From NCBI GenBank assembly GCA_051003235.1, contig JBPCLN010000101.1, positions 1 to 56,049 on the forward strand: a stretch of DNA of 56,049 nt. The letters run 5' to 3'. The translations under genes were made by a program, and so were the position numbers. Within the stretch, counting starts at the first letter, position 1, and each line of letters opens with the position of its first letter. The DNA is from Chloroflexota bacterium. GTDB taxonomy: Bacteria > Chloroflexota > UBA4733. This document shows positions 8,521-13,233 of this stretch, piece by piece. Under the pieces are notes generated by a model. The model saw only the letters and a list, made by a program, of their open reading frames with translations, did no database searches and was not told the origin of the DNA.

Positions 8521-8657
8521 GCTGACAGGCAAGCGGACCCTGGTGACTTGAACGCTGTGCAGGCGCGCCGAGATGCGCCATAGTCCGGACCGGTGACGGG
8601 TCAATGCGTATACTCGGAACCGCGGGCCGTGTGTCAGGTGCGACGGGATGGGGAGCA

Positions 8658-9170
8658 GTGGTAGCAAGTCAATCGGTCCTGGTCGGCCTGACGGCCGCCG
8701 TGGCGATCGCCTTACTGTTTGCATTGTGCTCCCTGGGTACCGTCCTCCGGCTGTGGCGCGAGGTGATGCAAGTGCGACACGCCTCCAAAGCGTTCGGCAA
8801 TGGCGGTCTCCACGGTCTTGATCAGGTGCTGCGCGAGCAGGAATTGCAGCTACGCCAGGCCGAAGATCGCGTAACGGAACTGGAACGGCGGCTCGGTCAG
8901 GCCGAACTGCGGCTCGCCGGAGCAATTCAGCACGTCAGCGTGGTACGGTTCAATCCGTTCCGCGACGCCGGTGGCGAGCAGAGCTTCGTGATCGCCTTGC
9001 TGGACGATGGCGGTACCGGCATACTGGTGACCGGAATTCATTCCCGAGCGGAAACGCGGATCTACGCGAAGCCGGTGGTCGCCGGCAATTCGCAATATCC
9101 ATTGTCGGAAGAAGAGGTCTCCGCCATGCGATCAGCGGTCGCCACGCCGCTCGGAGTAAGCGGCCGGTAA
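8658..9170 (+). CDS. DUF4446 family membrane-anchored protein
   Basis: N-terminal TM, coiled coil, VVRFNPFRDAGGEQSF..ALLD and RIYAKP motifs. Confidence 0.85.
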   Translation: MVASQSVLVGLTAAVAIALLFALCSLGTVLRLWREVMQVRHASKAFGNGGLHGLDQVLREQELQLRQAEDRVTELERRLGQAELRLAGAIQHVSVVRFNPFRDAGGEQSFVIALLDDGGTGILVTGIHSRAETRIYAKPVVAGNSQYPLSEEEVSAMRSAVATPLGVSGR

Positions 9171-10534
9171 TGGCGGACTACCGCGACCTCCCGTCGGTGG
9201 ACGCCCTATTGCGACATCCCGGCGTGGCCGCGGATAGTGGCGCGCCCGATCAGGGGCGGCGCGTTGCCGCGGCCCGGCAGGTGCTGACGGCGGCGCGCGC
9301 CGCCATTGCCAATGGGCAGCCGGCGCCTTCGACCGCGATACTTGCCGCTCGCCTCTTGGCGCTCGTCGCCGCGGAACGCCAGCCGCACCTGCGACCGGTG
9401 ATCAATGCTAGCGGCGTCATCTTGCAGACGAACCTGGGTCGTGCCCCCCTCTCCTCAGCAGCGCAGGACGCCATCGCCCTTGTTGCTTCCGGTTACAGCA
9501 ACCTGGAGTACGATTTGGCGCTCGGGCAACGCGGTAGCCGACTGGCCGGTATCAGCGGCCTCATAGCGGAGTTGACTGGCGCGGCTGGCGGCATGGTCGT
9601 CAACAACAATGCCGCAGCGGTCTTGCTCGCCCTGGCGGGAATCGCCGCCGGTAAGGAGGTCCTGGTTTCCCGCGGTCAGCTTGTGGAAATCGGCGGCGGC
9701 TTCCGCATCCCAGACGTCCTTCGGCAGAGCGGCGCACGGCTGGTGGAGGTGGGCGCCACGAACCGGACTTATGCGCGTGATTACGAGTCGGCGGTGACGG
9801 CTGAGACCGCCGCCATTTTACGCGTGCATCCCAGCAACTTCGTGCAGCAGGGTTTCGTCCACCAACCCGAACTAACTGAGCTTGCCGCCCTTTGCCGAGA
9901 CCGCAACATCCTGCTGATCGACGATCTTGGCAGCGGCGCTCTATTCGATACTTCAAGGTTCGGTCTGGCTCATGAGCCGACCGTGCAGGAAAGCCTGGCG
10001 GCCGGCGCCGACCTGGTCTGCTTCTCCGGCGATAAGCTGCTGGGCGGCCCTCAAGCCGGGATTCTCGCCGGGAAGGCCGGCCTGCTCCAGGAACTGTCCC
10101 GGCATCCGCTTGCCCGCGCCCTGCGCCTGGATAAGCTGAGCCTGGCCGCCCTGGAGGCAACGCTGCGCCATTATCTCCTCGGCGAGGCGGAGGAATGGGT
10201 GCCCGTGTGGCGCATGATTCGCTGCCGTCCAGAGGAACTCGACGGTAAGGCCGCCGCCTGGGTCGAGCAGTTGCAGATGGCCGGCATTCCAGCGAGCGTC
10301 GTCGCCGGAGAATCCACCGTCGGCGGCGGCTCTTTGCCGGGGGAGACGCTGCCGACATCACTCGTTGCCCTCGCTGCGGCGAACGTGGAAGCGCTGGCCC
10401 GCCGCCTCCGTACCGGCGACCCCAGTGTCGTCGGTCGCATCCAACGCGGCACGCTGCTCCTCGACCCGCGTACGGTCGCCGCCTCAGAGGAGGACGCTCT
10501 ACTGGCGCGTGTCATCACCGCCTGGCCGGAGTGA
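9170..10534 (+). CDS. selA: L-seryl-tRNA(Sec) selenium transferase
   Basis: VINASGVILQTNLGRA, VNNNAAA, SRGQLVEIGGGFRIPD, EVGATNRT, FSGDKLLGGPQAG (PLP lysine), GGGSLP. Confidence 0.96.
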   Translation: MADYRDLPSVDALLRHPGVAADSGAPDQGRRVAAARQVLTAARAAIANGQPAPSTAILAARLLALVAAERQPHLRPVINASGVILQTNLGRAPLSSAAQDAIALVASGYSNLEYDLALGQRGSRLAGISGLIAELTGAAGGMVVNNNAAAVLLALAGIAAGKEVLVSRGQLVEIGGGFRIPDVLRQSGARLVEVGATNRTYARDYESAVTAETAAILRVHPSNFVQQGFVHQPELTELAALCRDRNILLIDDLGSGALFDTSRFGLAHEPTVQESLAAGADLVCFSGDKLLGGPQAGILAGKAGLLQELSRHPLARALRLDKLSLAALEATLRHYLLGEAEEWVPVWRMIRCRPEELDGKAAAWVEQLQMAGIPASVVAGESTVGGGSLPGETLPTSLVALAAANVEALARRLRTGDPSVVGRIQRGTLLLDPRTVAASEEDALLARVITAWPE

Positions 10535-10554: not shown

Positions 10555-11622
10555 CTATTCGGAAAGGCGGAGGAAGCTAGCGTAGCGTCGCGCCGTCACG
10601 TCGCCGCCGGCTACCGCGGCGGTTACCGAGCAGCCGGGTTCACTCCGATGCCGGCAATCCATGCCGAAGCGACACGTCCCCACCAGGGGCCGCAGCTCTC
10701 GGAAAAGCAGCGCCACGTCGTCGCGGTGAACGTCCCAGAGACCGAATTCGCGCATGCCCGGCGTATCCACCACGCCGCCGCCACCGTCCAGGGCGAACAT
10801 TTCCAGCGACGTCGTCGTGTGTCGGCCCTTGCCGGTCAGATTGCTCACTTCGCCGACGCGCAAGCCAAGATCAGGTTGCACAGCGTTCAGGATCGTGGTC
10901 TTTCCCGCACCGGACTTCCCGGCGAGGACGGAGAGACGGCCTTGTAGGGCCTCGCGAAAGGAAGGGACGCCCATTCCGGTCGCGGCGCTGGTGAGAAAGA
11001 CCGGGTAGCCGAGACGGCGATAGTTTGCCACCTCCGCGTCGAACCGTCCCTCGGCCACCAAATCCATCTTGGTGATGCAGATGCCGGCGGGCACGTCGGT
11101 CGCCTCGGCGGAGGCCAGGTAGCGATCGACGAGTTCCCAGGAGAGGGCCGGGCGTTCGGCGGCACAGATGACGATGACCTGATCAACGTTGGTGACGATC
11201 ACCTGCTCAAGCGACTTCCCGCCCGCCGCCCGCCGCACCAACTTGCTCCGCCGCTCCTGGACGGCCACGATCACCCCGTGGCCGGCTTCTGCATCCAGAA
11301 AGGACACCGCATCGCCGACAGCAATGGGATCCACGGTGCGGATGTCCTCCACTGTCACTACATGGTGACGGAGCGAGCCGGCGTCGGCAATCGGGTAGAC
11401 CAGATGCTTGCGTAACCGGCTGGAGATCGTGCAACTCACGGTCCGGTCGCCCTGCCGGACGGCGTACAGGCCTTGACTCTTCCGGAATACCACACCATCC
11501 TGCTGGGCGCCGTTGGCAATCACCTCCGGCGTGTCTGTCGCTGCCTCCACAGCTGGATCAAGTAACGTCGGGGCGCCCTGGCTTGACCGGCGTTGGGACT
11601 GCTTCAATGCTTGTTTCGACAT
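10555..11622 (-). CDS. rsgA: Ribosome small subunit-dependent GTPase A (circularly permuted GTPase)
   Basis: VGD OB-fold, TKMD (G4), GKSGAGKT (G1), GRHTT, DTPGMREFG, CRFGMDCRHRSEPGC zinc finger. Confidence 0.93.
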   Translation of the reverse strand: MSKQALKQSQRRSSQGAPTLLDPAVEAATDTPEVIANGAQQDGVVFRKSQGLYAVRQGDRTVSCTISSRLRKHLVYPIADAGSLRHHVVTVEDIRTVDPIAVGDAVSFLDAEAGHGVIVAVQERRSKLVRRAAGGKSLEQVIVTNVDQVIVICAAERPALSWELVDRYLASAEATDVPAGICITKMDLVAEGRFDAEVANYRRLGYPVFLTSAATGMGVPSFREALQGRLSVLAGKSGAGKTTILNAVQPDLGLRVGEVSNLTGKGRHTTTSLEMFALDGGGGVVDTPGMREFGLWDVHRDDVALLFRELRPLVGTCRFGMDCRHRSEPGCSVTAAVAGGDVTARRYASFLRLSE

Positions 11623-11661
11623 ATGTCCTTCATTTCCATAACGACTCAAATGAACCGAGCG

Positions 11662-11712
11662 AAAAAGCGTTGCGCGACCGACGTACGGCCCGCGTGCACT
11701 TCAAGCGCAACG
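11662..11712 (-). terminator. Putative attenuator/terminator hairpin in the rsgA leader
   Basis: On - strand CGUUGCGC...GCGCAACG stem (11712-11705 / 11675-11668) followed by CUUUUU, ~40 nt before the rsgA start. Confidence 0.45.
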
Positions 11713-11825
11713 GGTAACTCTTGAAAACGGGCGGCCCAGCACGCACCGTCCGTAACAACGCGAGTAAACAGGATTGCTCAGCCTTCGAGCGTCACGCGCG
11801 TGACAGGCGCTTTCGGACCGATCGA

Positions 11826-11894
11826 CTACTGGGGAAAGTCGCTCGTTCCTGCCGCCCGGAGACCGTAACGGAGGGCAAACACATCTACACGCAT
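11826..11894 (-). CDS. Putative 22-aa leader peptide MRVDVFALRYGLRAAGTSDFPQ
   Basis: Strong RBS AAAGGAG 8 nt upstream, downstream of a sigma70 promoter and upstream of rsgA. Confidence 0.55.
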   Translation of the reverse strand: MRVDVFALRYGLRAAGTSDFPQ

Positions 11895-11958
11895 TGCACA
11901 CACTCCTTTCCGTCTCCCGCCGCCGCTCAGACCATCTGGGAGCGTCACGACTCGCTGC

Positions 11959-11987
11959 ACTGTACGGCTTCCTCCGTTCCATGTCAA
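11959..11987 (-). promoter_or_regulatory. Sigma70-type promoter for leader peptide/rsgA
   Basis: TTGACA-N17-TACAGT on - strand. Confidence 0.7.
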
Positions 11988-12101
11988 TGGGCAAGCATCG
12001 CAACACATCAGGCCGCGGCGCCCGGGGTTGGCGGTCCGGTGGTATAGTGGCGAGCGACGCCTGCAGTGATGCACTATGATGGGACGACCAGGGGCGTCGC
12101 T

Positions 12102-13233
12102 TTGGAAAGATGGGCAGGTTTCACCATATCCGAACTGTCGATATTGTTAGCTGAGTTGGCGCAACGCACCGCTCAGATGCAGGTGCGGCTTTGACCTGCC
12201 TACCAAGATTCAGTTAATCGCCGACCTCGACGCCCAGGCATCGGCGTCGGACTTTTGGGATGATCCTCGTTCCGCCCAGGCGACCAATCAACAACTGACG
12301 GTCCTCCGAGATCAGGTGGGCCGTTGGCAAGGCTTTGAGCACGATATTGGCGAGCTGCAAGAGTTGCTGGCTCTTGCTGAGGGTGACGACGAGCTCACCG
12401 CCGAGATTGAGCGGCAAGGCCGCGAACTGAACCGGCGCCTCGACCGCATGGAATTCGATCTGCTCCTCGGCGGAAAGTACGACATCAATAATGCCATCGT
12501 GGAGATCTCGTCCGGCGCCGGCGGCATTGAAGCCCAGGACTGGGCGGAAACGTTGCTGCGGATGTACCTGCGCTGGGGGCAAACTCACAAGTTCGAGACG
12601 GAGTTAGTCGACCAGCAACCGGGCGAAGAGGCCGGCATTAAGAGCGCCACCGTGCTGGTGCGCGGCGCTTACGCCTATGGGTATCTCGCCTCGGAGCGCG
12701 GTACGCATCGCCTGGTCCGGCTGTCGCCGTTCGATTCAGCCCAGCGGCGTCATACGTCGTTCGCGCTCGTTCAGGTGATGCCGGAAGTGCAGCAAGACAC
12801 GGAGATTCAGATTGATCTCCGGGACGTGCGCGTCGACACCTACCGCTCGACCGGCGCCGGGGGTCAGCACGTGAACAAGACGGACTCTGCGGTTCGCCTC
12901 ACCCATATTCCTACCGGTATTGTCGTTACTTGCCAGAACGAACGCTCTCAACTGCAAAATCGGGAAGTGGCTATGAGCATATTGCGTTCCCGATTACTCG
13001 AGCGGCGCCTCCAGGAGCAGGAGGCGGAGTCGGCCCGCCTGCGCGGGCAATTCGTCGCCGCCGACTTCGGCACCCAAATTCGCAACTACGTCCTGCACCC
13101 GTACACGCTCGTAAAGGACTTGCGGACCGCTGTTGAAACGAGTAACACCCAGGCAGTACTGGATGGCGATTTGGACGCCTTCATGGAGGCGTACTTGCGC
13201 TGGCAGGTCGGACGTAGCAGGAATGCCGCTTGA
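12102..13233 (+). CDS. prfB: Peptide chain release factor 2, +1 programmed frameshift at 12189-12195
   Basis: Internal SD AGGTG + CGG CTT TGA C shift site; downstream frame has GAGGIEAQDW, SPF, GAGGQHVNKT; start (TTG 12102 or ATA 12126) uncertain. Confidence 0.96.

Follow-up and report, generated by a model that had tools for sequence, protein, structure and literature searches.

The rsgA locus and its leader

We analyzed a 56,049-nucleotide stretch of DNA from a metagenome-assembled genome of Chloroflexota (GenBank assembly GCA_051003235.1, contig JBPCLN010000101.1), called here the window; the class of this organism is represented by only 6 species genomes in our collection. The element of interest lies upstream of a gene for the ribosome-assembly GTPase RsgA. 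Our reading, to which we assign a probability of about 0.6, is that positions 11987-11623 of the minus strand are the promoter and leader of this rsgA gene, and that the leader belongs, by its position and architecture, to a ribosome-dependent attenuator type that is widespread in Chloroflexota. All coordinates of rsgA and leader features below refer to the minus strand.

The rsgA gene of the window (10555..11622, ATG at 11622) is a long-type copy of 355 aa, preceded by the Shine-Dalgarno sequence (SD) AAGGA at 11630-11626. Its product matches PF03193 (E 2.6e-54) and the RsgA chains of the PDB, with E values from 9.8e-57 (6h4d) up to 1e-44. It has the circularly permuted GTPase domain and the intact C-terminal Cys/His zinc cluster of RsgA/YjeQ proteins, and the GTPase motifs G4 (TKxD), G1 (GxSGxGKT) and G3 (DTPG) are intact, being invariant in our alignment of RsgA proteins (A2). 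Since prfB lies upstream on the opposite strand, positions 11623 to approximately 12060 form a divergent intergenic region.

The original prediction placed in this region a promoter, a leader peptide and a terminator. The promoter is present: a sigma-70-type site (11959..11987) with TTGACA at 11987-11982, a 17 nt spacer and TACAGT at 11964-11959, matching the consensus at 10 of 12 positions. A promoter scan returned it as the sole promoter-like site in 11300-12500 (shuffled sequences gave a mean of 0.4), and we infer that transcription starts near 11952 and that the leader is about 330 nt long. Also as described, a strong SD, GAAAGGAG, stands 8 nt ahead of the ATG (11894) of a short upstream open reading frame (uORF; 11826..11894), which encodes MRVDVFALRYGLRAAGTSDFPQ in 22 codons and ends with TAG at 11828-11826. 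The SD is part of a segment that we call S1 (GGGAGACGGAAAGGAG, 11903..11918). In the predicted minimum free energy (MFE) fold of the leader, S1 (11918-11903) is the 5’ strand of a hairpin, H1, whose other strand is uORF codons 7-13 (GCC CUC CGU UAC GGU CUC CGG; 11856..11876). This second segment, the anti-SD strand, is referred to as A1; in an inverted-repeat search the S1:A1 arm measured 16 nt with 75% complementarity.

Two terminator-like hairpins follow the uORF. The first, T1 (11724..11752), had been overlooked; it consists of CGGACGG..CCGCCCG (11752-11728) followed by UUUU (11727-11724), has a predicted energy of -10.6 kcal/mol, and is detected only under relaxed U-tract criteria. Nucleotides 37-44 of the uORF (CGGGCGGC, 11851..11858) are an exact complement of its 3’ arm and are paired with it in the MFE fold, making them a candidate antiterminator strand. 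The second, T2 (11661..11712), contains the terminator stem of the original prediction. The repeat behind that stem is real: CGTTGCGC and GCGCAACG are an exact 8-nt inverted repeat (11712-11705 and 11675-11668) with 29 nt between the arms, followed by the U tract CTTTTTCGC. The stem is nonetheless not the MFE fold of this segment; a rival hairpin (11700-11666, -13.8 kcal/mol) ends at the same UUUUU as the CGUUGCGC/GCGCAACG stem. There is no promoter-like site in the window between the terminators and rsgA, so rsgA must be transcribed by read-through of both hairpins.

Conservation of the leader within the genus

When the leader DNA was searched against 40 relatives, nothing outside the source genome matched, and orthologous loci were therefore sought via the protein. 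Three genomes of the same genus encode rsgA orthologues 65-71% identical to the window RsgA. As the original prediction had proposed to check, the uORF is conserved upstream of these orthologues: in 3 of 3 congeners the same promoter hexamers with the same spacing (TTGACA-17-TACAGT), a GGAG-type SD, an ATG and a uORF of 17-25 codons (MRVYTCAFRSALRCGRR, MCACICAVRSALGWGFRERRIGTVG and MAVGTYASRSAQRRHAA) are found at the same place. Downstream of the uORF the congener leaders can barely be aligned. Genus-wide conservation inside the uORF (GCC-nUC-CGn-AGC-GCG-CUG) coincides with the 3’ strand of H1, and the H1 pairings of the three congeners were equalled by 12, 52 and 0 of 500 shuffles. A CUUCCUCCUUCUC-like stretch, potentially able to pair with either SD, is also present at loci L008 to L010. 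The sequencing runs listed as containing the DNA of the window include no RNA run. At the level of strains, contigs from 4 DNA runs yielded a list of four variants; both of those that fall in the uORF (11883 and 11844) are synonymous third-position changes located outside the predicted stems.

Distribution across Chloroflexota rsgA loci

The source genome has a second rsgA, as had been suspected. It is located on contig C133, encodes a protein of 300 aa that is 38-39% identical to the window copy, and adjoins an nrdR-like gene. In a tree of 124 rows this short copy clusters with its short counterparts from the genus and family (support 100), and the window RsgA falls in a clade of 51 rows (SH-aLRT 99) that comprises several Chloroflexota families and many metagenome contigs. 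A second RsgA was present in 8 of the 9 genomes carrying the window’s RsgA clade, the ninth being 83% complete.

We searched rsgA loci for a leader, defined as an ATG-initiated ORF of 12-35 codons preceded by a strong SD and located 90-900 nt ahead of the conserved GVVFRK anchor. Such a uORF was found in 33 of the 38 loci of the window’s clade that have at least 500 nt of upstream sequence, versus 11 of the 70 other RsgA loci. Nine of these 11 look like the same leader: L098 and L108, which are truncated clade-like genes, L053, three loci of genus g50 and three of family f9; the other two seem to be unrelated. A uORF leader was absent from all 7 short-type second rsgA copies, and within the source genome only the window copy bears one. 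An SD of the form GAAAGGAG(G/A)CGC or similar occurs almost everywhere among the leaders, and the peptides vary greatly from one subfamily to the next. All 27 leaders with a GC content below 0.55 have a hairpin with a U tract that begins 22-39 nt past the uORF stop, usually followed by a second one after another 100-140 nt; of the 15 leaders with a GC content of at least 0.55, 5 have one, including that of the window.

In the genomes of f9 (G013 and G025) and g50 (G230 and G134), a leader of the same layout precedes the single rsgA. The covariance models R1 and R2, which describe H1 and T1 of the window’s relatives, do not match the f9 or g50 leaders at E up to 10. If these leaders are related, the leader is not confined to spare paralogues. 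The original prediction had suggested that the window gene may be a resistance or ribosome-rescue paralogue; the second rsgA that this implied exists, but since similar-looking leaders, although undetected by the RNA models, stand before the sole rsgA of other Chloroflexota, the leader by itself does not mark such a paralogue.

Several loci showed particular arrangements. The f9 leaders (L018, L019 and L021) are short and GC-rich and precede the genome’s only rsgA. Their uORF (MTTVHIARPRLAGRLPRS-like) includes GCGCGCCC, the complement of a downstream GGGCGCGC, and a conserved CUCCAC...GUGGAG hairpin covers the rsgA SD, giving an erm-like translational layout without a U-tract terminator. In the g50 loci (L052, L054 and L055) a conserved ORF of approximately 87 aa (MSAYDAIANIAEPRTQLDVEETIVIILERDGSLSYHPP...) lies between the leader terminators and rsgA, at about 1080-1350 of the rsgA-oriented sequence; its stop codon overlaps the rsgA ATG (ATGA), suggesting translational coupling. 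The long-type RsgA of genus g86 (L048 and L049) has an extra acidic, low-complexity N-terminal extension of about 120-130 residues with a shared ...LK(N/D)(R/K)HGRPVN... motif, and in L049 the first terminator is 109 nt past the uORF stop.

Mutually exclusive pairings in related leaders

The best-sampled subfamily consists of 14 closely related leaders (L066-L070, L074, L076, L079, L082, L084-L086, L091 and L051), which align over their full length: a CTTGACA-17-TAAACT promoter, an SD, a 21-codon uORF, two tandem terminators, and a second small ORF that runs into rsgA. RNAalifold predicts for these 14 leaders that the SD region pairs with uORF codons 15-18 (H1), and also predicts T1 and T2. 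With the SD and the 3’ arm of the terminator masked, the same uORF stretch is predicted to pair with the 5’ arm of the terminator. With a covariance model of this subfamily, full-length leaders are detected at L053, L108, L039, L098, L094, L056, L093 and L060/61, and a second model adds L089 and L073.

In the resulting alignment of 23 rows (A5), H1 and T1 are 94.4% paired, with changes on both sides in 14 of the 21 pairs. Their covariation amounts to 0.318, versus 0.168 in shuffles (0 of 500 reach the observed value) and at most 0.082 when the strands are slid. The antiterminator, A1 paired with the 5’ arm of T1, is 74.3% paired versus 34-53% when slid, with 13 doubly changed cells, a number reached in 0 of 500 shuffles. 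These figures must be read with two biases of A5 in mind, both of which favour the switch model: its fitting followed the OFF structure, and a single one of its rows served to define the antiterminator. For this reason we added an alignment-free shuffle test on 30 leaders. At least 95% of shuffles are outscored by the pairing of the SD region with the uORF (H1) in 27 of the 30, and by that of the uORF with the 5’ arm and loop of the terminator in 19 of the 30, counts that are not independent because the leaders are interrelated. H1 and the antiterminator use the same uORF nucleotides, the sequences involved being subfamily-specific; in L089 both pairings score -30.6 kcal/mol. Comparative sequence evidence thus shows mutually exclusive pairings of the attenuator type in the related leaders.

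The second small ORF of the 14-leader subfamily, MLAQVAQVFHTNG.LSAR.IQNGRLSK..., has its own SD, AGAAAGGAA, and is located after the two terminators. It crosses the rsgA start codon out of frame (e.g., L070:1359-1610), and the variation in its first ~30 codons falls on third positions and is synonymous. It might provide a further, translational layer of control in this subfamily; the window has no counterpart.

The leader of the window

The leader of the window is a GC-rich, divergent version of this arrangement. What it shares with the modelled relatives is the promoter, the SD, the uORF, the H1 layout and the place before an orthologous gene. One pairing specific to the window is better than chance: that of uORF nucleotides 37-44 with the 3’ arm of T1, an exact 8-nt complement (100%, -19.8 kcal/mol, equalled by 12 of 500 shuffles), whose formation would preclude T1. 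No pairing with T2 was significant in the window when duplexes were compared with shuffles. In the four genus members, duplexes between the rsgA translation start region and the leader were no better than shuffles (202, 61, 44 and 210 of 300), and neither was a second leader partner for the uORF SD; in the window, the rsgA start region is unpaired in the MFE fold. Rfam release 15 had nothing that matched window positions 11000-12800 (E up to 10) or the leaders of 10 related loci (E up to 1).

Several results weigh against assigning the window leader to the attenuator family. As a whole it folds no better than shuffled sequences (z = -0.13), so that the “hairpin-rich” character attributed to it by the original prediction is not above background. 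H1 of the window (-17.6 kcal/mol) is not significant alone, being equalled by 134 of 500 shuffles, nor is the pairing of A1 with the 5’ arm of T1 (266 of 500). T1 has just 4 U residues and a mismatched stem, the fold of T2 is ambiguous, and a hairpin with a U tract is absent from the leaders of all 3 congeners. R1 and R2 miss the window leader, as well as L008 to L010, at E up to 10, so the homology of the window leader rests on position, SD and layout. Finally, even in the 14-leader subfamily the peptide is weakly constrained, with a dN/dS over uORF codons 2-13 of 0.78 in frame, 0.69 in frame +1 and 1.93 in frame +2. The attenuator architecture proposed earlier for the window thus fares unevenly: its layout is conserved and exclusive pairings are found in relatives, but its terminators are weak and its congeners have none. 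Given that the relevant parts of the window are GC-rich and divergent, are missed by the models, and lack U-tract terminators in the congeners, a switch in the window is suggested by layout and kinship, and its exact output is uncertain.

Peptide or RNA

The uORF could act through its peptide or through its RNA. The original prediction pointed to RAAG in the peptide as reminiscent of arrest motifs. The congeners do not share it, having RCGRR, GWGFR and RRHAA at that position. Since the conserved uORF nucleotides are the 3’ strand of the SD-region hairpin, RNA pairing explains them without any role of the peptide. In the 14-leader subfamily the uORF stop is kept at the same place with different codons (TAA in 12, TGA in 1, TAG in 1), and a motif S-V-[LIV]-V-x-D, in which Val7 uses all four Val codons, is kept within this subfamily only. 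In the window’s genus, the four different Arg codons at position 9 sit in an internal loop of H1 and so provide no evidence for peptide selection. We also found no runs of regulatory codons, nor any amino acid consistently enriched across the leader peptides; amino-acid attenuation was rejected because such codon runs are missing. From these patterns we conclude that the uORF frame is probably translated and that the sequence of its peptide appears to matter little.

A model for the leader and its alternatives

Taken together, the sequence evidence indicates that the rsgA leader is a real, conserved and so far undescribed cis-regulatory leader. The model that we favour involves four competing segments: S1, reaching from the near-perfect SD of the uORF to its ATG; A1, the anti-SD within the uORF; the 5’ arm and loop of the terminator; and its 3’ arm with the U tract. 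Pairing of 1 with 2 (H1) and of 3 with 4 (T1) would lead to termination ahead of rsgA, and pairing of 2 with 3 would prevent it. In the absence of a ribosome, H1 would form, then the terminator. A ribosome that reaches the stop codon would cover segment 2, and the terminator would form too. Read-through into rsgA would require a ribosome that still occupies the SD, the start codon or the earliest codons at the time of terminator transcription, since only there would it block segment 1 and leave segment 2 free. The part played by the ribosome, the direction of the response and its physiological signal are inferred from this arrangement. For the signal we lean towards slow or stalled early translation, with the supply of free, initiation-competent 30S subunits as the alternative; the two would respond oppositely to many stresses.

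In that alternative, which we regard as possible at best, the RNA switch is the same and the signal differs: the SD must capture a 30S subunit before the anti-SD is transcribed, capture leading to read-through and its failure to termination. Expression of rsgA would then track the quality and quantity of the 30S pool matured by RsgA, or feed back on it. The SD would suit such a role: in nearly all leaders GAAAGGAG(G) complements the 16S 3’ end with unusual completeness, and a strong hairpin (-17 to -31 kcal/mol) always locks it. The weak constraint on the peptide also fits, and leaders on sole rsgA copies suit housekeeping homeostasis more than drug resistance. RsgA itself acts on the 30S decoding centre (PMC5499641). 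The proposal is purely inferential, though, and leaves unexplained why the uORF always spans A1 and stops 0-33 nt later, and why peptide positions are kept in one subfamily. Taken further, and just as tentatively, the leader could be a sensor of both the quality and the quantity of 30S subunits, in which kinetic competition between the SD and the anti-SD of its own uORF reports whether an initiation-competent 30S subunit is at hand, or lingers at the start, sets read-through of the tandem terminators accordingly, and feeds back on a factor that matures the 30S subunit.

The idea behind the original prediction, an antibiotic-responsive nascent-peptide arrest leader of the ermCL or rli80/hflXr type, in which a drug-bound ribosome stalls at RAAG and induces a resistance or rescue RsgA paralogue, seems to us unlikely. 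The layout does fit, and an early stall in the uORF is the very state that would free segment 2. The leader is on only one of two rsgA copies, 8 of the 9 genomes of the clade have a second RsgA, and there is a precedent in Streptomyces coelicolor, where one of the RsgA paralogues is WblC- and tetracycline-dependent (PMC7157823). The kept S-V-[LIV]-V-x-D motif of the 14-leader subfamily, with Val7 in all four Val codons, also speaks for this idea. Against this, RAAG is unconserved in congeners, the conserved uORF nucleotides coincide with the 3’ strand of H1, dN/dS is no lower in frame (0.78) than out of frame (0.69), and the peptides are almost wholly different between subfamilies; moreover, leaders of the same layout stand before the only rsgA of f9 and g50 genomes. 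Control in the GC-rich members, including the window’s genus, might instead be translational or Rho-dependent, with the rsgA ribosome-binding site sequestered, as it apparently is in f9. The congeners without U-tract terminators, the f9 hairpin over the rsgA SD and the CUUCCUCCUUCUC-like stretch of L008 to L010 would be in keeping with this, but duplexes at the rsgA start are no better than shuffles in 4 of 4 genus members, the rsgA start of the window is unpaired in its MFE fold, and the window has two U-tract hairpins, so we consider it improbable. Least probable is that promoter, uORF and terminators make up an independent small gene, for a small protein or an sRNA of ~150-230 nt, that merely happens to lie upstream of rsgA. 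Its own strong promoter and the efficient-looking tandem terminators of the relatives could be taken that way. Yet the linkage to rsgA holds across many lineages, promoter-like sites are missing from the stretch between terminators and rsgA in the window, the next SD directly adjoins the second terminator in the short leaders L069, L079 and L085, the peptide is poorly conserved, and antiterminator pairing would be purposeless in a stand-alone gene.

Neighbouring genes

The gene divergent from the rsgA leader, prfB (release factor 2; 12066-13233, plus strand), has a classical programmed +1 frameshift site: frame 0 ends at CTT TGA C (12189-12195) and the PCRF and RF-1 domains are in the +1 frame. 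An extended -10-like box, TGgTATAGT, at approximately 12040-12048 suggests that the prfB and rsgA-leader promoters lie back to back. On the other side of rsgA, 8604-10534 (plus strand) contains a DUF4446 gene directly followed by selA, for L-seryl-tRNA(Sec) selenium transferase (PF03841, E 7.8e-132), and the source organism probably uses selenocysteine. A tRNA and tmRNA scan of the window found none. In one of the related loci, a fluoride riboswitch (RF01734, 44.8 bits, E 2.3e-9) is located downstream of the rsgA locus on a metagenome contig (L061:3625-3684, plus strand).

Relation to known systems and significance

In the trp, his, leu and thr attenuators of enterobacteria, a short ORF near the promoter is followed by an intrinsic terminator; pairings 1:2 and 3:4 terminate transcription, pairing 2:3 lets it read through, and the position of the ribosome decides between them. 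The rsgA leader shares the order of uORF and terminator and the four-segment logic. It differs in having no runs of regulatory codons, and in that segment 1 is the uORF’s own SD and start and segment 2 is inside the ORF, so the inducing state would be a ribosome at or near the start rather than at hungry codons. The regulated gene here is also a ribosome-assembly GTPase and not a biosynthetic operon. Among antibiotic-inducible leaders are those of ermCL-ermC, rli80-hflXr in Listeria, and vmlR, and hflX and hflXr are paralogues of which one has a leader. With these systems the rsgA leader has in common a short uORF before a gene for a ribosome-associated factor, alternative hairpins, and its presence on one of two paralogues; by contrast, no conserved arrest motif was found in it, its peptide is weakly constrained, and leaders of the same layout are found on sole rsgA genes too. 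Like cis-regulatory RNA families of Rfam, the rsgA leader is a structured 5’ leader with a terminator, but it matched none of them. Our literature search found no paper on a cis-acting rsgA leader, and to our knowledge the control of ribosome-assembly GTPase levels in bacteria is largely unknown territory.

A related case at the level of the gene is that of S. coelicolor, whose RsgA paralogues are SCO6149 and SCO5211, one of them being stress-induced under WblC/WhiB7 control (PMC7157823). As here, the genome has two paralogues; in S. coelicolor, one is under a stress-responsive control tied to translation inhibitors. That control is exerted by a transcription factor, and the uORF attenuator belongs to the gene of this factor, whereas here the uORF leader is directly on rsgA.

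Because segment 1 is the uORF’s own ribosome-binding site, the switch should read initiation or early-elongation behaviour and not amino-acid supply. The rsgA leader would be a compact, testable RNA switch that is widespread in an environmentally abundant and poorly studied phylum. If 30S sensing were true, it would amount to autoregulation of a ribosome-assembly GTPase via the functional state of its product. Because the leader accompanies sole rsgA genes as well as one member of paralogue pairs, it offers a natural system for the study of leader retention and loss after gene duplication, and of a possible function of RsgA paralogues in translation stress such as has been suggested for Streptomyces.

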